64,000 nt of DNA from Escherichia coli (GTDB taxonomy: Bacteria > Pseudomonadota > Gammaproteobacteria > Enterobacterales > Enterobacteriaceae). The translations under genes were made by a program, and so were the position numbers. Location: NCBI RefSeq assembly GCF_045037415.1, contig NZ_CP173438.1; one strand, given 5' to 3'. Positions 11,756 to 24,343 of this stretch are shown here, piece by piece (position 1 is the stretch's first letter; each line of letters begins with the position of its first letter). Below the pieces are notes generated by a model. That model was not told where the DNA came from. It ran no database searches and worked only from the letters and a program-made list of their open reading frames with translations.

Positions 11756-12102
11756 CACACACCCCACACCACAACGAATCCATAAATCACGTAAACCACC
11801 AGTGCAACGACAATCACCAGTTGCAGCATCAGGCGCAAGGCCAGCGGTTTAACGTAGTCGGTCAACACCTGCCACATGCCGATCCAGGCATGGATCAAGA
11901 TAGAAAACAGCGCCAGCAGGGTGAACACTTTGGTGAACGCAGAGGCGAAGAAACCAATCCAGACTTCATATGTCAGCTCGCCACTGGTAGCGAAAAAACC
12001 GACCATATAAATGATGTAGAGCGTCAGGACGATAGCGGTAGCACGAACGAGGATGAAATCATGTACGCCATTGCGTCCTAATGCGGAGGCGTTGCTTACC
12101 AT
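11755..12102 (-). CDS. sdhD: succinate dehydrogenase membrane anchor subunit
   Basis: 115 aa hydrophobic protein in the sdhCDAB operon. Confidence 0.95.
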
Positions 12103-12485
12103 ACGAGGACTCCTGCGAGAAGTGAAAGCACGACAGTAATAACAAAGGAGATTTTGGCGGAGCGTTTACCCGCTTCGAATGTTTCTTCCAGATAGCCAAA
12201 ATCCATCATCATGTGGCGAATACCTACGACGACGTGATATGCCAGAGCGGTAAGGATGCCCCACATGATAAATTTGACGAAGAAGCTGCCCATAATCGCG
12301 GAAGCTTGCTCGAAACCTTCAGGGGAAGAGAGGCTGGTACCCAGAAGCCACAGCAGGATGCCCACTGCAACAAAGGTGATCACACCGGAAACGCGATGGA
12401 GAATGGACGCTATCGCCGTGACGGGGAACCGGATGGTCTGTAGGTCCAGATTAACAGGTCTTTGTTTTTTCACATTTCTTATCAT
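12096..12485 (-). CDS. sdhC: succinate dehydrogenase cytochrome b556 subunit
   Basis: ORF-track frame 12096..12500; start placed at [15 protein letters not shown]. Confidence 0.9.
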
Positions 12486-12500
12486 GAATAACGCCCACAT

Positions 12501-13193
12501 GCTGTTCTTATTATTCCCTGGGGACTACGGGCACAGAGGTTAACTTTCTGTTACCAGGAGACGTCGGGATTTCCTTCCTCCGGTCTGCTTGCGGGTCAGA
12601 CAGCGTCCTTTCTATAACTGCGCGTCATGCAAAACACTGCTTCCAGATGCGAAAACGACACGTTACAACGCTGGGTGGCTCGGGATTGCAGGGTGTTCCG
12701 GAGACCTGGCGGCAGTATAGGCTGTTCACAAAATCATTACAATTAACCTACATATAGTTTGTCGGGTTTTATCCCGAACAGTGATCTGCGTCACGATAAC
12801 AACATTTATTTAATTTTTAATCATCTAATTTGACAATCATTCAACAAAGTTGTTACAAACATTACTAGGAAAAGCATATAATGCGTAAAAGTTATGAAGT
12901 CGGTATTTCACCTAAGATTAACTTATGTAACAGTGTGGAAGTATTGACCAATTCATTCGGGACAGTTATTAGTGGTAGACAAGTTTAATAATTCGGATTG
13001 CTAAGTACTTGATTCGCCATTTATTCGTCATCAATAGATCCTTTACCTGCAAGCGCCCAGAGCTCTGTACCCAGGTTTTCCCCTCTTTCACAGAGCGGCG
13101 AGCCAAATAACAAACGGGTAAAGCCAGGTTGATGTGCGAAGGCAAATTTAAGTTCCGGCAGTCTTACGCAATAAGGCGCTAAGGAGACCTTAA
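12501..13193. promoter_or_regulatory. Divergent sdhC / gltA promoter-regulatory region
   Basis: About 690-bp AT-rich non-coding spacer between divergent sdhC and gltA; individual binding sites not mapped here. Confidence 0.7.
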
Positions 13194-14477
13194 ATGGCTG
13201 ATACAAAAGCAAAACTCACCCTCAACGGGGACACAGCTGTTGAACTGGATGTGCTGAAAGGCACGCTGGGTCAAGATGTTATTGATATCCGTACTCTCGG
13301 TTCAAAAGGTGTGTTCACCTTTGACCCAGGCTTCACTTCAACCGCATCCTGCGAATCTAAAATTACTTTTATTGATGGTGATGAAGGTATTTTGCTGCAC
13401 CGCGGTTTCCCGATCGATCAGCTGGCGACCGATTCTAACTACCTGGAAGTTTGTTACATCCTGCTGAATGGTGAAAAACCGACTCAGGAACAGTATGACG
13501 AATTTAAAACTACGGTGACCCGTCATACCATGATCCACGAGCAGATTACCCGTCTGTTCCATGCTTTCCGTCGCGACTCGCATCCAATGGCAGTCATGTG
13601 TGGTATTACCGGCGCGCTGGCAGCGTTCTATCACGACTCGCTGGATGTTAACAATCCTCGTCATCGTGAAATTGCCGCGTTCCGCCTGCTGTCAAAAATG
13701 CCGACCATGGCCGCGATGTGTTACAAGTATTCCATTGGTCAGCCATTTGTTTACCCGCGCAACGATCTCTCCTACGCCGGTAACTTCCTGAATATGATGT
13801 TCTCCACACCGTGCGAACCGTATGAAGTTAATCCGATTCTGGAACGTGCTATGGACCGTATTCTGATCCTGCACGCTGACCATGAACAGAACGCCTCCAC
13901 CTCCACCGTGCGTACCGCTGGCTCTTCGGGTGCGAACCCGTTTGCCTGTATCGCAGCAGGTATTGCTTCACTGTGGGGACCTGCGCACGGTGGTGCTAAC
14001 GAAGCGGCGCTGAAAATGCTGGAAGAAATCAGCTCCGTTAAACACATTCCGGAATTTGTTCGTCGTGCGAAAGACAAAAATGATTCTTTCCGCCTGATGG
14101 GCTTCGGTCATCGCGTGTACAAAAACTACGACCCGCGCGCCACCGTAATGCGTGAAACCTGCCATGAAGTGCTGAAAGAGCTGGGCACCAAAGATGACCT
14201 GCTGGAAGTGGCTATGGAGCTGGAAAACATCGCGCTGAACGACCCGTACTTTATCGAGAAAAAACTGTACCCGAACGTCGATTTCTACTCTGGTATCATC
14301 CTGAAAGCGATGGGTATTCCGTCTTCTATGTTCACCGTGATCTTCGCTATGGCACGTACGGTTGGCTGGATCGCCCACTGGAGCGAAATGCACAGTGACG
14401 GTATGAAGATTGCCCGTCCGCGTCAGCTGTATACCGGCTACGCGCAGCGTGATTTTAAGTCGGATATTAAGAAGTAA
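13194..14477 (+). CDS. gltA: citrate synthase
   Basis: 427 aa; [22 protein letters not shown]-terminus; GFGHRVY active-site motif. Confidence 0.97.
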
Positions 14478-14492
14478 AAATGACACCGACAA

Positions 14493-14521
14493 AACCCTGC
14501 GTGGACACGCAGGGTTTTTAA
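14493..14521. terminator. Bidirectional intrinsic terminator between gltA and the TRAP operon
   Basis: aaaa-ccctgcgtg-gac-acgcaggg-tttttt: perfect hairpin flanked by A-run and T-run. Confidence 0.75.
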
Positions 14522-14523
14522 TT

Positions 14524-15834
14524 CTACACCAGCAGCAAAGATATTGCCGGAATATAGGTAATGACCAACAGAAGTAAAATAAGACTGATCAGTAATGGCA
14601 CCGCTTCACGCATAAATTGCCCGACAGAAACCTGTACGGTATTACATACCAGCAGCATCACCGTTCCGACAGGTGGTGATAACGTTCCTAACGATAAGTT
14701 GAGGATCATAATGATGCCAAAATGCACCGGATCAATGCCAAAATGAGCCACCACGGGTTTAAGTAATGGGACTAATATCAGCAGAATGGCACTACCTTCA
14801 AGGAACATGCCAAGCACCAGCAGCAATAGATTGATAATCAATAAAAAGACGTATTTATTATCGGTCAGAGAAGTTACAAACTCCGCAACCGTGATACCTG
14901 CCCGCTCAAGGGAAAATATCCAGCCCAGCGCGGCACTCGCCATAATGATTAACATGACCGATGCCGTGGAACGCGCCGTCTCAGAGAGTGCTGTAAATAC
15001 ATGGCTGATTTTCAGTTCGCGATAAATTACAAAACCAATAAACATTACCAATAATACTGCTACCGCTCCGGCTTCCGTTGGCGTAAAGATATTTGCCCGA
15101 ATACCACCGATAACCGCAACAATTAAGAACAGTGCTGGCCAGGCCTGCACCAGCGCCACTGACACTTCTTTCGGTTTTGGCCAGTGTTCGCTGGAAGGTT
15201 TTAAACCGCGACGAATAGCCACCAACCATACGGTAACGATCAACATGGCGGAGCACAGCAGACCTGGCAGGATCCCGGCCATAAACATGGAGCCGATGGA
15301 GACATCCGCCACCAGTCCGTAAAGGATCAGTGCAATACCCGGTGGAATAATTGGTGTAATCAGCGAACCACTTGCCGTTATCGCCGCCGCAAAGCCACGG
15401 GAATAACCTTTCTGTTCCATTTCCGGCACCATCATGCGCGATAACATTGCGGCATCCGCCAGATTTGAGGCACTGACACCGCCCATCATGGTACTGACCA
15501 GAATATTAGCCCCACCCAGGCCACCGCGCATTCTGCCAATCAACACGTTGGCAATTTGCAAAATACGCGCGGCAATACCGGTATAGCTCATTAACGTGCC
15601 TAATAAGATAAAAAACGGAATAGCTAACAGCGAAGGGGTTTGCGTCGTGGCAATCAAACGCTGAATTGCCACCATTAACGGCACATTTGAATAGCAAAGG
15701 AAGTAGGTCAGAATGCCGCAAAACATCGCCAGCCATACCGGCATATTGATAAATAAACAGACGAACATAAGCGGAATGATCATCAGCCAGTTATCCAGCC
15801 AGCTTCCCGCCAGTAATTCACTCAATGCTGTCAT
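14524..15834 (-). CDS. TRAP transporter large permease subunit (DctM family)
   Basis: 436 aa polytopic membrane protein; stop/start overlap with the upstream small permease. Confidence 0.85.
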   Translation of the reverse strand: MTALSELLAGSWLDNWLMIIPLMFVCLFINMPVWLAMFCGILTYFLCYSNVPLMVAIQRLIATTQTPSLLAIPFFILLGTLMSYTGIAARILQIANVLIGRMRGGLGGANILVSTMMGGVSASNLADAAMLSRMMVPEMEQKGYSRGFAAAITASGSLITPIIPPGIALILYGLVADVSIGSMFMAGILPGLLCSAMLIVTVWLVAIRRGLKPSSEHWPKPKEVSVALVQAWPALFLIVAVIGGIRANIFTPTEAGAVAVLLVMFIGFVIYRELKISHVFTALSETARSTASVMLIIMASAALGWIFSLERAGITVAEFVTSLTDNKYVFLLIINLLLLVLGMFLEGSAILLILVPLLKPVVAHFGIDPVHFGIIMILNLSLGTLSPPVGTVMLLVCNTVQVSVGQFMREAVPLLISLILLLLVITYIPAISLLLV

Positions 15835-16295
15835 TATTCACCTTCTTTGCGTGGCGTTTTCTTGATCAGTTGTAAGGCAGTAAAACAGGCGACACCGATA
15901 GCGCCAACCGTGACGGCAATATCGATCCAAAACCAGGATATTTTTAATATTTGCGTGGTTTTAAAGGCTGTCCCGGCAGCTAATTTCCATGCTGACCAGG
16001 CCATGACCACCAGCAAAATAATAGACATCAGAGAGACTAAAAACGCTAATATACGTTGCCCGCGTGAAGTAAGTGCATCGGCTAAAAATGGAATCGATAA
16101 ATGGGTATTATCTCGTTCAGCAACAACCGCACCAAACATGACTACCCAAATCATTAATAAACCGGAAACCTCTTCTGTCCACTGTAATGGCATATGAAAA
16201 CAGTAACGCATTATTACCGCAGCAATGGTCATGATTACCAATATAAAGAGCGTTAATACCGCAGCAACTTCAATCATTTTCCCTAAAAGACGCAT
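15834..16295 (-). CDS. TRAP transporter small permease subunit (DctQ family)
   Basis: ORF-track frame 15834..16331; start placed at ATG 16295 (MRLLGKMIEVAAVL, GAGG Shine-Dalgarno); alternative upstream start at 16331. Confidence 0.7.
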   Translation of the reverse strand: MRLLGKMIEVAAVLTLFILVIMTIAAVIMRYCFHMPLQWTEEVSGLLMIWVVMFGAVVAERDNTHLSIPFLADALTSRGQRILAFLVSLMSIILLVVMAWSAWKLAAGTAFKTTQILKISWFWIDIAVTVGAIGVACFTALQLIKKTPRKEGE

Positions 16296-16354
16296 AAACA
16301 CCTCTGCTCTTAACGGTCGGTGCCGAAACACCGACCAGTCCTTATGCCATGAAG

Positions 16355-17323
16355 TTATTTCAGCTGTTGCTGAATAGTGTCATACAAACCAGGGGTCCAT
16401 TCCGGGAATTGTTGATAGACTTTTAAGGCTTTTTCTTTGAAAGGGGCGACGTCAGGATAGATGATTTCCACGCCCTGCTCCTGCATGGTTTTCAACATTG
16501 TCGCATCCTGCTCAGTGGTAATTTTCTGGCTATATAAACCAGCTTCATACGCTGTCTGGTGAATAATATCTAACTGCGCAGGTGTCAGGGTACTGAAAAA
16601 CGCTTCGCCACCCAACCATAATGATGTATTGGTCAGATAGTTCACCATTGACAGATATTTCGCCTGCTCATGCAGCTTTTGCCCATAGAGAACAGAAACC
16701 GGGTTTTCCACACCATCGATCATCCCCTGAGTCAGCGCCGGATAAACATCTCCCAGCGGCATTGGTGTTGGGGTTGCGCCCATCGCTTCGATAGCTTTAA
16801 TCTGCATGACGTTATTCGGCACGCGGATCTTCATCCCTTTCAAGTCTTCAGGTGTACGAATCGGTTTTTTAGCAATGATCTGCCTGGTACCGTACAGATA
16901 GTTGCTCATGACAATATGCACACCTTTTTCCCGTAGTTTCTGTTCTTTTTGTTTAAACCAGTCACTGGCATAAATCGCAAACAGTTTCTGCGGATCTTCG
17001 GTTAAATAAGGCCCAAACAATATTCCCAAGTCTGCATCGTAGTCAGTTAAAAATCCTACATCACTGATGGTGATAATATTCATCCCCATCAACGCTTGTT
17101 CAGTAATATCTTGTTTAGAACCTAACTGTGAACTTGGGTAAAGTTCGAAAACAATATCTCCATTGCTTTTTTTCTTCACAAGTTCTGCCCAGTGCTTCAC
17201 TACTGTATCCGCTGGCTCGCCGGGGTTACTTTCATAGGCGATTTTGATAGTTACCGGTGCGGCATTCAGCATCGGACTAAATAAAGCTAAAAGAAATAAA
17301 AGTGGTGTCAGTAATTTTTTCAT
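16355..17323 (-). CDS. TRAP transporter substrate-binding protein (DctP family)
   Basis: 322 aa; signal peptide MKKLLTPLLFLLALFSPMLNAAPV; periplasmic binding-protein fold. Confidence 0.85.
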   Translation of the reverse strand: MKKLLTPLLFLLALFSPMLNAAPVTIKIAYESNPGEPADTVVKHWAELVKKKSNGDIVFELYPSSQLGSKQDITEQALMGMNIITISDVGFLTDYDADLGILFGPYLTEDPQKLFAIYASDWFKQKEQKLREKGVHIVMSNYLYGTRQIIAKKPIRTPEDLKGMKIRVPNNVMQIKAIEAMGATPTPMPLGDVYPALTQGMIDGVENPVSVLYGQKLHEQAKYLSMVNYLTNTSLWLGGEAFFSTLTPAQLDIIHQTAYEAGLYSQKITTEQDATMLKTMQEQGVEIIYPDVAPFKEKALKVYQQFPEWTPGLYDTIQQQLK

Positions 17324-17350
17324 TATTATTACCTGTAAGAGCTTTATCGA

Positions 17351-18547
17351 TTAACGGGGATCTGCCCGACAGACTGCACTTTTGCTGTAATCAAATGCTT
17401 TATACGTTAAAACAAACTCCTGATGTTCCAGTCGTTCTGCGGCACAATATTGACCGTTGGCGACATGTTCAATCACCTGCATAATATCGTCTGCAATATC
17501 GTCGAGCGTTGCGCCTTCGCTAATTACACGACCGGCATTAACGTCCATATCGTCAGATAAATGCTCCCACGTCTGCGGGTTATTACACACTTTAATAATA
17601 GGAGCGATCACTGAACCAATAACTGAACCGCGACCTGTGGTAAATAACACCATATGACAGCCAGAGGCGATAAGTTCCAGTGCTTCTGAGGAATCGTTAA
17701 TATTCGGATACCCAAAACGAGGTTCACCATCAGGCACCACGTCCATCAACCAAAGCCCAGGAAAGGGCGTTTGTTGCGTCGGCAAAATAACGCCAGCAAT
17801 CAGCGCATCGCCCGACTTGGTATAAGCCCCAAGGGATTTTTCTTCCTGAGTGGTTAAGCCGCCTTCAGCATTACCGTTAGAAAAACTCCCCAGCCCCATC
17901 AAACTGTAATAACGTTCGGCTTTTGTCATTGCCACTTCGATGGCATCACGTGCCTGCGAACTAGCCGCGCGCGACATCATATGCTGCTCACAACCAAGCA
18001 ACTCACCGCTTTCTTCAAAAATACAGGTAGCCCCTTTCTCCAGCAGTTGGTCAAAGGCACGTCCTACTGCCGGGTTACCCGTGATACCACTGGTGCCATC
18101 GGAGCCACCGCAGATAGTACCAACCACCAGGTCGCTCCAGTTCAGGATACAACGCGGTGTATCCGCAAGCTGTTCCAGCATTTCAGCGACCAACTGCTTA
18201 CCCAGAGTAATGGTGTTGGTCGTGCCTTTATTTTCCTGAATGACCAGCGTATGGCACGGTCGCCCACTTTCTCGTACTTCTTGCTCCAGCCGACGGCGAT
18301 CGAAATTCTCGCACCCCAGCGAAATAATCAGTACACCACCTACGTTGCTATGAGTCGCCAGATTTTTCACCAGCCGATAGCCATAATCGCTGGGATAACA
18401 ACCTGAAAAACCAAAATACTGCACGTCGTGACAAGGAAATCCTTCGGCAATCTTTTTAGCGACATGGCTGGCACACTCCACCATAAAGATTACCTGCACA
18501 GTATTACGAATACCTGGTCGACCATTTTGCCGTACATAACCTTCCAT
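17351..18547 (-). CDS. UxaA-family sugar-acid dehydratase, large subunit
   Basis: 398 aa resembling the C-terminal domain of altronate/galactarate dehydratases; 1-nt stop/start overlap with the SAF-domain partner. Confidence 0.8.
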   Translation of the reverse strand: MEGYVRQNGRPGIRNTVQVIFMVECASHVAKKIAEGFPCHDVQYFGFSGCYPSDYGYRLVKNLATHSNVGGVLIISLGCENFDRRRLEQEVRESGRPCHTLVIQENKGTTNTITLGKQLVAEMLEQLADTPRCILNWSDLVVGTICGGSDGTSGITGNPAVGRAFDQLLEKGATCIFEESGELLGCEQHMMSRAASSQARDAIEVAMTKAERYYSLMGLGSFSNGNAEGGLTTQEEKSLGAYTKSGDALIAGVILPTQQTPFPGLWLMDVVPDGEPRFGYPNINDSSEALELIASGCHMVLFTTGRGSVIGSVIAPIIKVCNNPQTWEHLSDDMDVNAGRVISEGATLDDIADDIMQVIEHVANGQYCAAERLEHQEFVLTYKAFDYSKSAVCRADPR

Positions 18548-18855
18548 TATGCTTTTTCCTCTGACTGATAGCCGGCATCATCATGATGAAAAATGGCGAT
18601 GGCATTGCTGGCAAGATTATGGGAATGCACATGTTCACCCATGGCAATATCGCGAGTGGCGTGTCCGATAATGGCGCCGTATTTCAGAATCGAATCACCA
18701 TTGTTCAGCGCTTCGCAGGCCAGTTTGTGCCCCAGGGTAACGGAACTACAGGCCACCATTTCCCCCTCATCCCACCAGACAATATCGCCACTGGCGATGT
18801 CATTCAGCGCGACTACACAGTTATCTTTGGCATGTAGCTTTAACGCACGTTTGCG
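18547..18855 (-). CDS. UxaA-family dehydratase small subunit (SAF domain)
   Basis: ORF-track frame extends to 18963 and would overlap the SDR gene; start placed at internal Met (MRKRALKLHAKDNCVVAL). Confidence 0.65.
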   Translation of the reverse strand, partial: RKRALKLHAKDNCVVALNDIASGDIVWWDEGEMVACSSVTLGHKLACEALNNGDSILKYGAIIGHATRDIAMGEHVHSHNLASNAIAIFHHDDAGYQSEEKA

Positions 18856-18872
18856 CATAATTCCTCCGTACA

Positions 18873-19628
18873 TCAGAAGCCGATCAATGCGCCGCCATCC
18901 ACCACCAGCACCTGACCACTGACAAACGCCGCTGCGTCTGAAGCCAGATAAACCGCAGCCCAACCGATATCCTCCGGCTTGCCGAATTTTTTCATCGGGG
19001 TACGACCCAGGATTTTGTTACGGCGTTCGTCATCACCTTCAATGGCCTTACGCAACATTGGTGTATCGATCCAGCCTGGCGCAATACCATTGACGCGAAT
19101 CCCATGAACGGCAAGCTCCGTGGTCATACCGCGAATCATGCCGAGATAGGCTGACTTCGCTGCGCTGTAGCCAGTAACCAGAGGCTGCCCAAGAAATGAG
19201 GTCATCGATGCAGTAAAAAGCACACAGCCTTTACCGCGTTGTTTCATATGCGGCACCAGCGCTTTGGTTAACGCAAATGCGCCGACTACGTGAACGTCGA
19301 GTACTGACTCAAAATCACTGACGCTCATCTCTTCAATCGGTTTTTTGCAGTGATTGCCTGCGTTATTGACCAGGATATCGATAGCCCCGTGTTCGCTAAT
19401 AAGCACATCAACTTTTTCCTGCGCGGCTGCGGTATCCCCGACATCCATTTGTATCCAACTGGCCTGCGACCCCAATGTTCCGGCGGTCGCTTGCGCCAGC
19501 TCGCCGTTCAGGTCAGCAATAATGACCTTCGCCCCGCTGACTATCATGCATTTCGCCATTGCCAGCCCCAGCCCACTGGCTGCACCGGTGATCAACGCGG
19601 TTTTGTTATGTAAAGAAAAAGCATTCAT
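18873..19628 (-). CDS. SDR-family NAD(P)-dependent oxidoreductase
   Basis: 251 aa; TGAASGLGLA Rossmann motif, YSAAK catalytic motif. Confidence 0.85.
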   Translation of the reverse strand: MNAFSLHNKTALITGAASGLGLAMAKCMIVSGAKVIIADLNGELAQATAGTLGSQASWIQMDVGDTAAAQEKVDVLISEHGAIDILVNNAGNHCKKPIEEMSVSDFESVLDVHVVGAFALTKALVPHMKQRGKGCVLFTASMTSFLGQPLVTGYSAAKSAYLGMIRGMTTELAVHGIRVNGIAPGWIDTPMLRKAIEGDDERRNKILGRTPMKKFGKPEDIGWAAVYLASDAAAFVSGQVLVVDGGALIGF

Positions 19629-19639
19629 GGTGTCGCTCC

Positions 19640-20653
19640 TTAAAGGTCAATGAGGATTTTGGTATACGCGCCGGGATCACTTGCCCAGTCGCTAAAAGCG
19701 TGATCAGCCTGTTCCAGCGGGTAGTGAGCACTCACCAGATTGCTGACCGGATAACGCCCGGACTCCATCAATGCCAGCACGGCACGAAAATCCGCCACGG
19801 TGGCATTGCGCGAACCACGGATATCCAGTTCTTTCATCAGGAACTGCGCACTCTGATAACTCACTGGCTGTTTGGCGTAACCGACATAAACCACACGACC
19901 GCTAAACGCCACCAACCCTGTAGCCTGTTCAATGGTTTGTTGATTACCCACCGCTTCAATCACCACTTCCGGGCCGCGACCGTCATTTAACAGCACCAGT
20001 TCTGCCGCCACGTCACATTGCTGCGAATTAAGAAAACGTTGCGCACCGCATTCCAGGGCAATGTTCCGCTTGCGATCATCAATATCGATAGCAATTACGC
20101 GCGCCCCCATGGCGGATGCCGCGGCGATAGCGCCAAGGCCAATTACCCCACAACCGATAACTGCGACCCATTCACCCACATTAATTTGCGCACGTCTGGC
20201 CGCATGTAGTCCCACGGCCAGCGGTTCTACCAGCGCTAACTCATCAACACTTAAGGCATTACAGACAATGACTTTATGTGCAGGCATCGTCAGTTGTTGC
20301 GCCATCCCCCCCTGACGTTGCACACCAAGAGTTTGGTTGTTTTTACAGGCGTTAGGACGACCGCTCAGACAGGAGCTGCACACGCCACACTCAGTGCAAG
20401 GCAGAACGACCACCCGGTCACCTGGCTTGATCGCCCCTGCCATATCGCCAGTTGCCAGCACCGTGCCGCCAATTTCATGCCCCGGAATACAGGGATAATT
20501 AACCAGCGGATTTAGTCCCCGCCAGGTATTGAGGTCAGAACCACACAGTCCGACACGCTCAACATTGATTAGCACTTCTCCTTTACCGCAGACAGGTTCG
20601 GGGATATCAACAAATCGCGCCTGACTTCCCTGCTCAATGGTTAATGCCTTCAT
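19640..20653 (-). CDS. Zn-dependent medium-chain alcohol/polyol dehydrogenase
   Basis: 337 aa; catalytic zinc motif (GHEIGG), structural-zinc Cys cluster (CTECGVCSSC), GCGVIGLG NAD motif. Confidence 0.85.
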   Translation of the reverse strand: MKALTIEQGSQARFVDIPEPVCGKGEVLINVERVGLCGSDLNTWRGLNPLVNYPCIPGHEIGGTVLATGDMAGAIKPGDRVVVLPCTECGVCSSCLSGRPNACKNNQTLGVQRQGGMAQQLTMPAHKVIVCNALSVDELALVEPLAVGLHAARRAQINVGEWVAVIGCGVIGLGAIAAASAMGARVIAIDIDDRKRNIALECGAQRFLNSQQCDVAAELVLLNDGRGPEVVIEAVGNQQTIEQATGLVAFSGRVVYVGYAKQPVSYQSAQFLMKELDIRGSRNATVADFRAVLALMESGRYPVSNLVSAHYPLEQADHAFSDWASDPGAYTKILIDL

Positions 20654-20665
20654 TCATTGCTCTCC

Positions 20666-21352
20666 TTACATTACGCCGAAGGTTTCAAAGGCCTGTACCG
20701 TGCTCATGCCATCACTGATGGCTTTGCGCACTTCACTTTCAGTTGCCACTTTTTCCAGGGCCTGGGTAATAACTTCTTTCTCAACAACCTGGGGAATAAT
20801 CAGTAATCCGTCACGATCACCAAACACGATATCGCCCGGATTCACTCGCACGCCGTGAAATTCAATAGGTACGCCGAAGTCGATGACCTTGCCGCGCGGA
20901 CCTTGATCCTGTGCGTAAGTGCCATGACAAAAAGTGGGAAATTTCAATTCAAGAATTTCAGCAGAGTCACGGGCGTAACCATCGAGTACCGCACCTGCTG
21001 CTTTCAGATGCATGGCACGGGTAGACATCAACCCGCCCCACAAGGCATAGCGCAGAGAGCTGCCCGTAGTGATGTAAACATCGTTCTCTTTGAGGGCATC
21101 CAGCGCTTCAAACATGATGCCAAACGGTTTTTCGCCAATCGCCGTCTTACCCGACGTCGATTTGGTTTCGTAAACGTCCGACTCCAGCACCGGCATTGCC
21201 CGGCCTGCCACCACCGTATTCACATCCAGCGGCTTGATTGCCGGAGAAACAAACTGGTGCATATAGCCCAGCGTGTCGAGAATATCGCCAACCACGGCGG
21301 TAAATAGCCGGGTTTTCATCAAAGCAAAAAGTTCGTTATCACTCTTCCACAT
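20666..21352 (-). CDS. RraA-family protein (putative 4-hydroxy-2-oxoacid aldolase / oxaloacetate decarboxylase-like)
   Basis: ORF-track frame 20666..21409; start placed at MWKSDNELFALMK; first gene of the catabolic operon. Confidence 0.7.
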   Translation of the reverse strand: MWKSDNELFALMKTRLFTAVVGDILDTLGYMHQFVSPAIKPLDVNTVVAGRAMPVLESDVYETKSTSGKTAIGEKPFGIMFEALDALKENDVYITTGSSLRYALWGGLMSTRAMHLKAAGAVLDGYARDSAEILELKFPTFCHGTYAQDQGPRGKVIDFGVPIEFHGVRVNPGDIVFGDRDGLLIIPQVVEKEVITQALEKVATESEVRKAISDGMSTVQAFETFGVM

Positions 21353-21409
21353 TATTTTCGTCCTGTAAGCCTGTTTAACAGGTTTACAGGGTAAGGAGAA
21401 AAAGCGCAC

Positions 21410-21615
21410 AATACTGCGAAGGGCGTCACGAAAAAGTTGTGTATTTACTATTTCTTCGCCACTCTTTCACACAATATGTCTTTGATTCGCACTGCATGGC
21501 GGGCGCACAGGCGCAGTAGTCTATTGATAATCAAGGGTTCTGGAGGAAAATATGAAGGATACAGTCCCGGTATTCTGGATTTCACCGACCAGGAAAAAGT
21601 ACAACAGGAGTAAAA
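21410..21615. promoter_or_regulatory. Divergent promoter region between the island-A catabolic operon and its GntR regulator
   Basis: 206-bp spacer between divergently oriented genes; contains a 23-codon uORF with a strong Shine-Dalgarno sequence. Confidence 0.45.
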
Positions 21616-22329
21616 ATGAGTGAGAGTGCGTTATTGACCAGCGTAACGTTATCGTCACAGGTCAAAAATCATATTCTTAATCTGATCGCCGAACAAAAAT
21701 TGACACCGGGGATGCCAGTTCCCAGTGAAGTTCAGCTGATTCAGAAATTGGGTGTCAGTCGGGGTATTGTGCGTGAGGCCTATCGTTCACTTGCCGCCCT
21801 GGGGATTCTGGAAACGCACAGCGGTAAAGTGCCACGAATCAAAAAATTTGATGATGAAGTGCTGCGCGTGGTGTTTGGATTTGCCCTGGCGACCGAACAA
21901 GTGACAACAGAGCAAATTCTTCAAGTACGCCGCTGGCTGGAGTTGGGCGTTGTGGAAGCTGCTGCCCGTAATGGCGAAGAGGAAGATTTTGCTAACCTAC
22001 GGGCTGAAATGGCAAAAATCCGCGAACAGTTCAATGATGTTGAAAGCTTTATCACCCATGATATCCGCTTCCATCAGTTACTTGCCGTTGCCTCAAAAAA
22101 TCCGCTTTTTATGATGTTATTGCAGGCATTACATCAGCAGTTGCGGCAATCCATCCAGGAGGGTTTAAACGCCCAAAGCGATCAGAAAGAGTATGGCAAT
22201 CACATCATCACACTACACCAGAAAATCTGCGATGCTGTGTGTGCCAGGGATGTCGAAACGGCGACTCAAGCCATGAAATCACACTTCGACAGCCCGGTCA
22301 GTGCACTGATCAATAATTCCTCGTCATAA
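21616..22329 (+). CDS. GntR/FadR-family transcriptional regulator
   Basis: 237 aa; N-terminal HTH (SEVQLIQKLGVSRGIVREAYRSL) and helical C-terminal effector domain; AGGAG Shine-Dalgarno. Confidence 0.85.
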   Translation: MSESALLTSVTLSSQVKNHILNLIAEQKLTPGMPVPSEVQLIQKLGVSRGIVREAYRSLAALGILETHSGKVPRIKKFDDEVLRVVFGFALATEQVTTEQILQVRRWLELGVVEAAARNGEEEDFANLRAEMAKIREQFNDVESFITHDIRFHQLLAVASKNPLFMMLLQALHQQLRQSIQEGLNAQSDQKEYGNHIITLHQKICDAVCARDVETATQAMKSHFDSPVSALINNSSS

Positions 22330-22508
22330 GACTTATCTCAGTTCAATCGTTTACTCTTCCCTCTTTTACAAACGAGAGGGAGACAACGGTACTTAATACG
22401 CCCTTTAGCCAAAATCTGTCTTTTTCTTGATTACCGCTATTTTTTCGTTGAGGCGCATTCTTTATGCTGTATCGATACACCAAAGGTAAGTTAAACAGGG
22501 AGTGACGG

Positions 22509-23555
22509 ATGCCAGTGCTACAGTGGGGAATGTTATGTGTTCTGTCACTTCTCCTTTCTATTGGCTTCCTCGCTTTACATCTCCCGGCGGCACTCCTGCT
22601 TGGCCCGATGATCGCGGGGATCATCTTCAGTATGCACGGAGTCACTCTGCAACTTCCCCGCTCCGCTTTTCTCGCTGCCCAAGCCATTCTTGGCTGCATG
22701 ATTGCACAAAACCTCACTGGTTCGATTCTCACCACGCTGGCCGTCAACTGGCCGATCGTGCTTGCGATTTTACTGGTGACGCTGCTTTCCAGCGCCATCG
22801 TGGGTTGGTTATTGGTGCGCTATAGCTCACTGCCTGGGAATACCGGGGCCTGGGGTTCTTCTCCTGGCGGCGCGGCGGCAATGGTCGCAATGGCGCAAGA
22901 TTACGGCGCAGATATTCGCCTGGTGGCGTTTATGCAATATCTGCGAGTGCTGTTCGTCGCAGGAGCCGCTGTTCTGGTCACCCGCATGATGCTGGGCGAT
23001 AACGCTGAAGCGGTTAACCAGCAGATCGTCTGGTTCCCGCCAGTGAGCATTAATCTCCTGCTTACGATTTTGCTCGCGGTCGTTGCCGGTACGGCGGGAT
23101 GCTTGCTACGTCTTCCTTCCGGCACGATGCTCATCCCGATGCTGGCGGGCGCAGTGCTCCAGTCTGGTCAGCTCATCACGATTGAACTCCCGGAATGGCT
23201 GCTGGCGATGGCATATATGGCAATTGGCTGGCGGATTGGTCTTGGTTTCGATAAGCAAATATTACTGCGGGCATTGCGCCCGCTACCGCAAATCCTGCTG
23301 TCGATTTTTGCTCTGCTGGCTATTTGTGCGGGCATGGCGTGGGGGCTGACCCGGTTTATGCATATTGATTTTATGACCGCCTACCTCGCCACCAGCCCCG
23401 GCGGGCTTGATACCGTGGCGGTCATCGCCGCAGGGAGCAATGCCGATATGGCGCTCATCATTGCGATGCAAACCCTGCGCCTGTTCAGTATTTTGCTGAC
23501 GGGGCCTGCCATCGCACGGTTTATTTCAACCTATGCGCCGAAGCGTTCGGCCTAG
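22509..23555 (+). CDS. abrB: AbrB-family inner membrane protein
   Basis: 348 aa polytopic membrane protein; 4-bp convergent overlap with nei. Confidence 0.85.
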
Positions 23556-24343
23556 TGCTGGCAGCCTGGGCACCAGTAAAACGGGCGCGATGACAGCGTG
23601 GTTTTCTCAATGATGCCGCCACAGCGTTCGCAAGGTTCGCCATCACGATGAAAAACCTTAAAGCGAAACAGCGCCCCATGATATTTGTTTTCATCCACCT
23701 GCCCCCGCGTAGCGTAAGAAAGTCGCGGAATATCCAGTAACGCGTGTGCGAGTGCATCCAGTTGCGGCGCATTGAGATCTTTCGCTTTATGATTTCCGGT
23801 CAACCCAACCTGCCAGAGGATCTCCACCCGCAAATAATTGCCAAGTCCTGCCAGAAACGCCTGATCGAGCAGTAATCCAGCAAACTGACGGTTACGAAAG
23901 CGCGGCGACAATAATCGTTCCTTTACCACCTCCGGCGTCAGATTCGGATCCAGCACATCGGGACCAACGCGTTGTAAAAACGGATGCGTGGTCAGTTGTT
24001 CCGGAGTCAACATCTCAATATCCGAGGCGCTATAAAGCAGAATGGTTTTGTCAGCCGTTTGCAGTTTTACCCGCAATACTCGCGTGGTCTGCGGCTCTTC
24101 GCCGGTATCAACCACGCGCCAGACGCCGTAAAGCTGATTATGGCTGTAGAGCGTTAAGTCGTTGGAAAAATGAGTTAACAACGCCTTACCACGCGTTTCC
24201 ACATGGGTAACGTGTTGACCGATAAGTCGTGATTGATAAGATTTTAACTGCGGGAAGGCAAACCAGACATCAGTTAGTGGTTTGCCTTTGATCGCCGCCT
24301 CCAGGTTATCCGCTGCACGGCGGATCTCCGGGCCTTCAGGCAT
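23552..24343 (-). CDS. nei: endonuclease VIII (DNA glycosylase / AP lyase)
   Basis: 263 aa; [21 protein letters not shown]-terminus; C-terminal zinc finger CERCGG...CPGCQ. Confidence 0.95.

Follow-up and report, generated by a model that had tools for sequence, protein, structure and literature searches.

Gene content of the gltA–abrB interval

The window analysed here is a 64,000-nt stretch of Escherichia coli DNA (assembly GCF_045037415.1, contig NZ_CP173438.1), to whose positions all window coordinates refer. Between gltA (13194–14477, plus strand) and abrB (22509–23555, plus strand), it contains an island of about 8 kb whose genes are predicted to take up and degrade an acidic sugar. In agreement with a preliminary description of this DNA, the island consists of a minus-strand operon and a divergent gene for a GntR/FadR-type regulator, and its nine genes are all intact. 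The eight minus-strand genes are spaced from a 1-nt overlap to 59 nt, a tight arrangement in keeping with a single operon. Many chromosomes of the sequence type (ST) 131 type match the 8.2-kb query at 100% identity, and the reading frames agree with the RefSeq annotation of the identical locus. A literature search on this E. coli island found no description of it. The genes and the candidate operator are as follows:

14524–15834, minus strand: dctM, large permease of a tripartite ATP-independent periplasmic (TRAP) transporter, 436 aa (TIGR00786, 390 bits against a cutoff of 268; RefSeq agrees)
15834–16295, minus strand: dctQ, TRAP small permease, 153 aa (YiaM model matched weakly; start taken from RefSeq)
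16355–17323, minus strand: dctP, periplasmic solute-binding protein with a signal peptide, 322 aa (NF037995, 175 bits against a cutoff of 50)
17351–18547, minus strand: large subunit of a UxaA/GarD-type dehydratase (UxaL), 398 aa (matches to TIGR03248 and PDB 6U7L)
18547–18858, minus strand: small SAF-domain subunit of the dehydratase (UxaS), 103 aa (aligns to the N-terminus of fused UxaA and GarD)
18873–19628, minus strand: short-chain dehydrogenase/reductase (SDR) family oxidoreductase, 251 aa (SDR motifs; match to NF005559)
19640–20653, minus strand: zinc-dependent medium-chain dehydrogenase/reductase (MDR) family dehydrogenase (Zn-ADH), 337 aa (MDR zinc and Rossmann motifs)
20666–21352, minus strand: RraA-like protein, 228 aa (RraA-family models below their cutoffs; relatives in PDB)
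21362–21390, no strand: candidate operator palindrome (inverted repeat conserved across genera)
21616–22329, plus strand: divergent GntR/FadR (FCD) regulator, 237 aa (matches to the NanR, LldR and GlcC models)

The matches of the regulator to the NanR, LldR and GlcC models are full-length and all below cutoffs. It is 62% identical to a Sodalis and 43% identical to a Propionivibrio regulator, each of which lies beside the same enzyme cassette as in the island, and these homologs carry PF00392 and PF07729. On the strength of these matches we assign it to the GntR/FadR (FCD) family, with a predicted GntR winged helix-turn-helix followed by an FCD domain. A 29-bp palindrome, CCTGTAAGCCTGTTTAACAGGTTTACAGG (21362–21390; 93% complementary), is located 10–38 nt upstream of the start codon of the RraA-like gene. 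It is kept in three other Escherichia species, in Entomohabitans and in Sodalis, while the rest of the intergenic DNA diverges, and its core motif has only one match in the window. The palindrome is likely the operator of the divergent regulator, for which it is put forward as a candidate. A promoter scan returned 14 sites against 11.4 expected from shuffles, a number not above background, and an Rfam scan of positions 12000–24000 gave no matches.

Transporter, enzymes and their relatives

The solute-binding protein DctP is 68% identical to Oant_3902 of Ochrobactrum anthropi (PDB 4OVT, solved by the Enzyme Function Initiative; phmmer E = 1.3e-142) and 43% identical to an Actinobacillus succinogenes protein (PDB 4O8M), and its AlphaFold (AF2) model (pLDDT 91) aligns to 4OVT with a TM of 0.88–0.94. 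Residues R147 and R167 do not vary in a set of 24 relatives; as judged from this conservation, DctP has the carboxylate-binding arginine of the fold, for which these two residues are the candidates. The structures 4OVT and 4O8M were presumably crystallised with L-fuconate and L-galactonate.

The genomic context of DctP was surveyed in 70 loci holding an ortholog, which were classified by the types of neighbouring enzymes; dctP, dctQ and dctM are adjacent in all ortholog loci. The Oant_3902-type TRAP cluster of Ochrobactrum/Brucella, with an orthologous DctP (65–68%), encodes a GntR regulator, a UxaB-like tagaturonate reductase, a fused 514-aa UxaA and a Zn-ADH, the Brucella copy of which is 49% identical to that of the island. 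The Pseudomonas fluorescens locus encodes a Zn-ADH, a UxaB-like reductase, UxaA and KdgK, the kinase of 2-keto-3-deoxygluconate (KDG). In Citrobacter amalonaticus (L008, 5412–13395), dctPQM stands in place of the major facilitator superfamily (MFS) gene lgoT at the opgB–lgoD–lgoR...tsr locus; its DctP is 72% identical to that of the island, and the neighbouring lgoR, lgoD and opgB are 88%, 85% and 93% identical to their true K-12 orthologs. Because of the orthology of DctP and the gene context in the 70 loci, including the replacement of lgoT in Citrobacter, the predicted ligand class of DctPQM is most likely L-galactonate and/or L-fuconate. The preliminary description had held that the substrate could not be named from sequence, a position that this narrowing of the class no longer allows. 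In Entomohabitans teleogrylli (L072, 5073–10477), the enzyme genes and the regulator are found at 62–81% protein identity; dctP matches residues 1–158 only, no dctQ or dctM follows though the contig continues, and the transporter appears to be truncated or lost.

The Zn-ADH shows the motifs GHE at residue 58, CGVCSSCLSGRPNAC at residue 89 (CxxCxxCx7C) and GCGVIG at residue 167 (GxGxxG), and in at least 61 of the 70 loci the DctP ortholog has a Zn-ADH nearby. The island enzyme would be an aldonate 5-dehydrogenase, analogous to LgoD, and the natural first enzyme of a pathway. The SDR is by its TGxxxGxG (TGAASGLG, residue 14), NAG (residue 89) and YxxxK (YSAAK, residue 154) motifs a classical member of its family and scores 232 bits against NF005559 (cutoff 215). 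A Zn-ADH together with a UxaB-like reductase and a fused UxaA was found in 31 of the 70 loci, and the island arrangement of Zn-ADH, island-type SDR, split UxaA and RraA-like protein in six, three of them in Escherichia and the rest in Pseudaminobacter, Mesorhizobium and Phaeobacter. Two loci combine a Zn-ADH and a fused UxaA with an island-type SDR and have no UxaB. Across the 70 loci, a UxaB-like reductase and an island-type SDR never co-occurred. We read this mutual exclusion as non-orthologous displacement, by which the SDR would take over the tagaturonate-reductase step and act as a keto-uronate reductase; by the same pattern, the split dehydratase would take the altronate-dehydratase step. 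Moreover, the eight-gene set of Pseudaminobacter, Mesorhizobium and Phaeobacter is 54–67% identical to that of the island and differs from it in gene order, a recurrence that argues for one selected pathway.

UxaS and UxaL together are collinear, end to end, with fused UxaA and GarD, to which the split dehydratase is 31% and 28% identical, respectively. UxaL matches PDB 6U7L (GarD) at 2.7e-31 and TIGR03248 at 162 bits against a cutoff of 731, so that the equivalog level for UxaA/GarD is not reached; Pfam PF04295 and PF20629 are recorded for a cluster that is 99% identical to it, and homologous small subunits carry PF08666 (SAF). Residues Cys25, Cys79 and Cys146 of UxaL align with cysteines of both UxaA and GarD, and Cys297 with a cysteine of UxaA only. 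Furthermore, the split enzyme shares the UxaA-type His cluster, which is not found in GarD. The conserved cysteines are proposed Fe ligands that are reportedly absent in the sulfo-lyase SuyAB (PMC6336799). By these alignments the split dehydratase can be placed in the UxaA/GarD superfamily, with its SAF domain at the N-terminus followed by GD_AH second and C-terminal domains; the database names of the UxaL homologs, all 'UxaA family hydrolase', were uninformative. The stop codon of UxaS overlaps the start of UxaL by 1 nt. An origin of the split as a frameshifted pseudogene was considered and rejected, the separate SAF reading frame being kept in Sodalis, Propionivibrio and metagenome homologs, across phyla.

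The RraA-like protein carries a G-x20-R-D-x2-E motif at residues 106–132. According to Mazurkewich et al. 2014, the motif G-x20-R-D-x2-E/D reportedly marks those RraA-fold proteins that are active as aldolases. The scores of the island protein remain below the cutoffs of NF006731 (61 against 179 bits), TIGR02798 (54 against 305) and the RraA model NF006875 (42 against 136), as do its matches to the PRK06201/PRK08245 and HMG/CHA aldolase models; in PDB it matches 3NOJ (E = 4e-7), 3K4I and 2C5Q, and a Sodalis homolog with 82% identity carries PF03737. The protein may be a metal-dependent, pyruvate-forming lyase. The Pseudomonas putida HMG/CHA aldolase (3NOJ) and FlDet of Flavobacterium sp. UMI-01, an RraA-like 2-keto-3-deoxyglucarate dehydratase/decarboxylase (PMC8563752), share with it the fold and the RD-x2-E metal/enolate motif, and FlDet shows that the RraA-like family can act on 2-keto-3-deoxy sugar acids. 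However, the similarity of the HMG/CHA aldolase to the island protein is low, its substrate is a tricarboxylate of an aromatic pathway and that of FlDet a hexarate, whereas the island substrate would be a neutral-tailed keto-deoxy hexonate.

The RraA-like protein, the SDR, the SAF subunit and the large subunit form a four-gene cassette that recurs, with a GntR/FCD regulator, in the neighbourhoods of UxaL homologs. The Sodalis cassette is 74–82% identical to that of the island and accompanied by an MFS transporter; the Propionivibrio cassette is 61–72% identical and accompanied by an unrelated TRAP transporter and UxaC; and three metagenome contigs hold the cassette, one of them amid pectin-degradation genes. 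The cassette is widespread, and assigning the RraA-like step would add a new activity to a poorly understood family. In two metagenome contigs, L081 (11437–12687) and L082 (10341–11594), the cassette is followed by a protein of about 416 aa with no Pfam match, the two copies being 75% identical to each other.

Proposed pathway and rival explanations

We give a probability of about one half to the reading that the island is a chromosomal, non-mobile operon for the high-affinity uptake and catabolism of L-galacto aldonic acids, namely L-galactonate and probably L-fuconate. The operon is best read as a non-orthologous variant of the route from L-galactonate through tagaturonate and altronate to KDG, to which an RraA-like lyase would have been added. 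In such a pathway, a GntR-type regulator would repress the operon and DctPQM, clearly a transporter, would import the acid, its ligand class being predicted from orthology and context. The Zn-ADH would oxidise C5 to give a keto-uronate, converting L-galactonate to D-tagaturonate, and the SDR, in keeping with the displacement of UxaB, would re-reduce this product to the C5 epimer D-altronate. The two-subunit Fe/Cys-type dehydratase, whose family is clear and whose substrate is predicted, would then produce KDG or 6-deoxy-KDG. In the weakest step of the scheme, the RraA-like protein might cleave this product, unphosphorylated, to pyruvate and glyceraldehyde or lactaldehyde. Such a lyase makes most sense for a 6-deoxy substrate, because KdgK cannot phosphorylate a 6-deoxy keto-deoxy acid. 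Gene identities and ortholog context support the core of what had been proposed for this DNA, namely TRAP uptake of an acidic sugar, oxidation and reduction, UxaA-type dehydration and an RraA-like lyase; the aldol cleavage named in that proposal is a putative step. UxaC yields tagaturonate or fructuronate, and its presence beside the Propionivibrio cassette fits the proposed route since it also makes tagaturonate.

A close parallel in chemical logic is the L-galactonate pathway of E. coli K-12 (LgoT/LgoR/LgoD, UxaB, UxaA, KdgK/Eda), in which, likewise under GntR-family control, the aldonate is taken up, oxidised at C5 by a Zn-dehydrogenase of the MDR family, reduced again and dehydrated by a UxaA-family enzyme to a 2-keto-3-deoxy acid. 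In the island, by contrast, every component is non-orthologous, all are encoded in one operon and an RraA-like protein is present; TRAP stands against MFS transport, an SDR against the long-chain, mannitol-dehydrogenase-type UxaB, and a two-subunit dehydratase against UxaA. The operon would represent a clear example of the LgoD/UxaB/UxaA route being displaced as a whole by non-orthologous enzymes; the logic of the pathway is familiar and current knowledge is not overturned. The Oant_3902-type cluster resembles the island in DctP, Zn-ADH and GntR regulator but differs in its UxaB-like reductase and fused UxaA and has no RraA-like gene. In the L-glucose pathway of Paracoccus sp. 43P (LgnH/LgnI/LgnE), C5 of an aldonate is reportedly epimerised by a dehydrogenase pair ahead of a UxaA-family dehydratase, as proposed here; that pathway is said to differ in converting L-gluconate to D-idonate, in having a fused dehydratase and in continuing through a kinase and KDPGal aldolase, with no RraA-like enzyme.

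Several observations weigh against the altronate route. The Zn-ADH is 35% identical to K-12 LgoD (YjjN) over 313 aa, so it is not an LgoD ortholog. The cassette occurs in Sodalis and L083 without any Zn-ADH or UxaC, and one full cluster, in Geminicoccus, has no RraA. Strain 4/1-1, an island carrier, also has the canonical lgoT–lgoR–lgoD genes, and a pure L-galactonate role would be redundant there; as this carrier keeps lgoTRD, the reason for retaining the island may lie in L-fuconate as a substrate and not in L-galactonate. We know of no RraA-family KDG aldolase. In the literature searched, FlDet was the sole RraA-like enzyme found to act on sugar acids, as a dehydratase/decarboxylase (PMC8563752). 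Finally, the UxaL relative that is nearest among those in an informative setting, a Sphingomonas homolog with 58% identity, lies in a classical non-phosphorylative L-fucose cluster, with an aldo-keto reductase (AKR), an SDR, an FAH hydrolase and RhaM, a context that implies direct dehydration of L-fuconate and not dehydration of altronate.

This last observation leads to a possible, if somewhat doubtful, alternative, a non-phosphorylative pathway of the 'Route I/III' kind, in which the split dehydratase would turn L-fuconate (or L-galactonate) straight into L-2-keto-3-deoxyfuconate (L-KDF). The RraA-like protein would then either cleave this product to pyruvate and L-lactaldehyde or, after oxidation of C4 by the SDR, hydrolyse the diketo acid, a task usually carried out by an FAH-family enzyme, and the Zn-ADH would be needed for L-galactonate only or act on the aldehyde product. 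L-fuconate shares its C2–C4 configuration with D-altronate and L-galactonate. Cj0482/Cj0483 of Campylobacter jejuni form a heteromeric L-fuconate dehydratase of the UxaA/GarD type. Similar heteromeric enzymes have been inferred in Paraburkholderia (PMC6336799), where A19U_RS0100650/655 of P. mimosarum shows the same division into SAF and large subunits as the island enzyme. In favour of direct dehydration there are, besides the Sphingomonas cluster, the three-enzyme cassette that stands alone in Sodalis and L083, with no entry enzyme, and the lgoTRD genes that carriers already have for L-galactonate; in Halomonas, moreover, genes for L-fuconate and for L-galactonate share loci that have a single TRAP system (PMC5507952). 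The heteromeric L-fuconate dehydratase clusters, however, contain an L-fucose dehydrogenase, a lactonase and a DHDPS-type aldolase or FAH hydrolase, none of which is present in the island, and the likeness is one of architecture. The island SDR is only 35% identical to that of the Sphingomonas cluster, and loci that retain a fused dehydratase can also have an SDR in place of the UxaB-like reductase. Direct dehydration also leaves the near-universal pairing of Zn-ADH and DctP and the UxaC of Propionivibrio unexplained, and no RraA-family hydrolase or KDF aldolase is documented.

In the Sphingomonas cluster (Sphingomonas phyllosphaerae, L078, 8703–13141), a 433-aa aldo-keto reductase/SAF fusion lies directly upstream of the large subunit, RhaM is a RhaM-like mutarotase, and the whole is an apparent oxidative pathway for L-fucose (a 6-deoxyhexose) that uses a UxaA-type dehydratase.

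We regard as unlikely a further reading, in which the island would be dedicated to the salvage of L-fuconate (6-deoxy-L-galactonate) and the RraA-like protein would be a new lyase, either a 6-deoxy-KDG/L-KDF aldolase or a 2,4-diketo acid hydrolase. Were it true, ST131 and related extraintestinal pathogenic E. coli would be able to use an acid derived from fucose that the host or the microbiota produces, and the RraA–SDR–split-UxaA cassette would have its first catabolic role in sugar-acid metabolism.

An oxidative aldarate route is far less probable. The dehydrogenases would take the acid, for example L-galactonate via D-galacturonate, to galactarate, the split enzyme would act like GarD to form 5-keto-4-deoxyglucarate, and the RraA-like protein would act like FlDet to form alpha-ketoglutarate semialdehyde. 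An RraA-like protein with such an activity has been shown experimentally (PMC8563752), and the sole NCBIfam model and the sole solved structure that the dehydratase matches are those of galactarate dehydratase. However, the split enzyme is slightly nearer to UxaA than to GarD and has the UxaA-type His cluster and fourth cysteine, both missing in GarD. In addition, none of the clusters examined contains an aldehyde dehydrogenase, the replacement of UxaB by the SDR points to keto-uronate reduction, and L-fuconate could not enter such a route.

It is least probable, to the point of being hardly credible, that the island encodes a sulfolactate-type pathway, with a SuyAB-like sulfo-lyase as the split enzyme and dehydrogenases that racemise sulfolactate via sulfopyruvate, as in the Chromohalobacter scheme, where two dehydrogenases and a split lyase form a set similar to that of the island. 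Among heteromeric members of the UxaA/GarD superfamily SuyAB is the classic one, but the four conserved dehydratase cysteines that it reportedly lacks (PMC6336799) are present in the island enzyme, the DctP orthologs lie in L-galactonate/hexuronate contexts, and no gene for a sulfite exporter or sulfite dehydrogenase is present.

A complementary distribution, in which island carriers would be without lgoTRD, was rejected as strain 4/1-1 has both. At least 80% of the K-12 lgoT–lgoR–lgoD region is present in 4391 of the 5426 complete E. coli genomes and partly or wholly missing from about 1000; because of strain 4/1-1, the genomes missing lgoTRD are not simply the island carriers.

Borders, alternative states and distribution

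Three further features define the ends of the island:

14435–14477, plus strand: final 43 nt of gltA, in a diverged form (set against K-12, ST95, E. albertii and E. whittamii)
14491–14518, no strand: bidirectional intrinsic terminator hairpin (fold energy and shuffle test)
22330–22520, no strand: right border region (comparison with K-12, ST95 and E. whittamii)

On the left, homology to K-12 and ST95 ends inside gltA, at about 14434/14435, and the resulting 3' end haplotype alters two or three C-terminal residues of GltA relative to K-12. In E. whittamii, where ybgD abuts gltA, the gltA end is of the K-12 type. By these comparisons, the diverged gltA 3' end can be taken to mark the left recombination breakpoint. 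The terminator hairpin (−18.5 kcal/mol, z = −3.6; none of 200 shuffles folds as well) separates the convergent genes gltA and dctM and is flanked by an A-tract and, on the opposite side, a T-tract, and its sequence is unlike that of the K-12 gltA terminator. The haplotype formed by the gltA end and the terminator accompanies the island wherever the island abuts gltA, and the hairpin can be counted as part of the island haplotype. The exact abutment on the gltA terminator that had been noted does not hold up: the breakpoint lies inside the gltA 3' end, and the terminator is itself island DNA. On the right, positions 22330–22419 are island-specific and homology to K-12 and ST95 restarts at 22420; the segment 22420–22520, covering the abrB upstream region and first codons, is 79–88% identical to K-12 and ST95 until about 22520. 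The GC content of the island is 40–55%, against 54–57% in the flanks. A 151-aa reading frame at 22343–22798 (minus strand), antisense to the start and upstream region of abrB, is absent from the RefSeq annotation and probably spurious.

Among Escherichia genomes, the gltA–abrB interval takes at least five forms. K-12 has the fimbrial operon only (in MG1655, ybgO–ybgP–ybgQ–ybgD between abrB and gltA, as the preliminary description had stated), ST95 has only a ybgD remnant and ST131 only the island, whereas the order is gltA–island–ybgDQPO in E. albertii and the divergent Escherichia genome L005 and gltA–ybgDQPO–island–abrB in E. whittamii. Thus, that the island stands in place of ybgOPQD is right for ST131 compared with K-12 but not as a strict alternative, since both coexist in E. 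albertii, L005 and E. whittamii. The left junction of ST131 is of the E. albertii type and its right junction of the E. whittamii type; in E. whittamii, too, the island abuts abrB, and the spacers between the GntR gene and abrB are 97% identical in the two. The occurrence of the island and ybgDQPO in both relative orders suggests repeated homologous exchange at the locus. In E. whittamii (L007, 14871–17313), two reading frames of 632 and 239 aa take the place of an intact ybgQ usher gene, and the fimbrial operon beside the island is therefore probably a pseudogene.

As the preliminary description had stated, there are no mobility genes: by gene calls and the RefSeq annotation, the interval is free of integrase, transposase and tRNA genes, and a search of the two borders for direct or inverted repeats gave none above 7 nt. 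Of 5426 complete E. coli genomes, 660 (about 12%) carry the enzyme core, in every case as one copy on the chromosome, and 655 of these copies show 99% identity or more. Among the carriers are SE15 and O25b:H4-ST131 strains. Fixed in the pandemic ST131 lineage, SE15 included, and absent from 88% of the complete E. coli genomes, the operon is a candidate niche-specific nutrient-acquisition trait. In a scan of species-representative genomes, the complete cluster was found at the same locus in E. albertii, E. whittamii and L005. Its proteins are 83–98% identical in E. albertii and 92–99% in E. whittamii, and its genes 82–89% and 92–96% at the nucleotide level, while the flanking gltA, abrB and nei are 90–92% identical in the same comparison. 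Divergence between species is thus about that of core genes, by which measure the island is old in the genus and has been kept variably. The possibility of a mobile element or of a recent import was considered and rejected in view of the invariably chromosomal, single-copy state, the absence of repeats at the two borders and the core-like divergence. In strain FXCREC145 (ST131-like, NZ_CM135823.1), an ISApl1 element (IS30 family) is inserted within the enzyme region of the island, and the island match is in two pieces and about 1.07 kb longer than the query.

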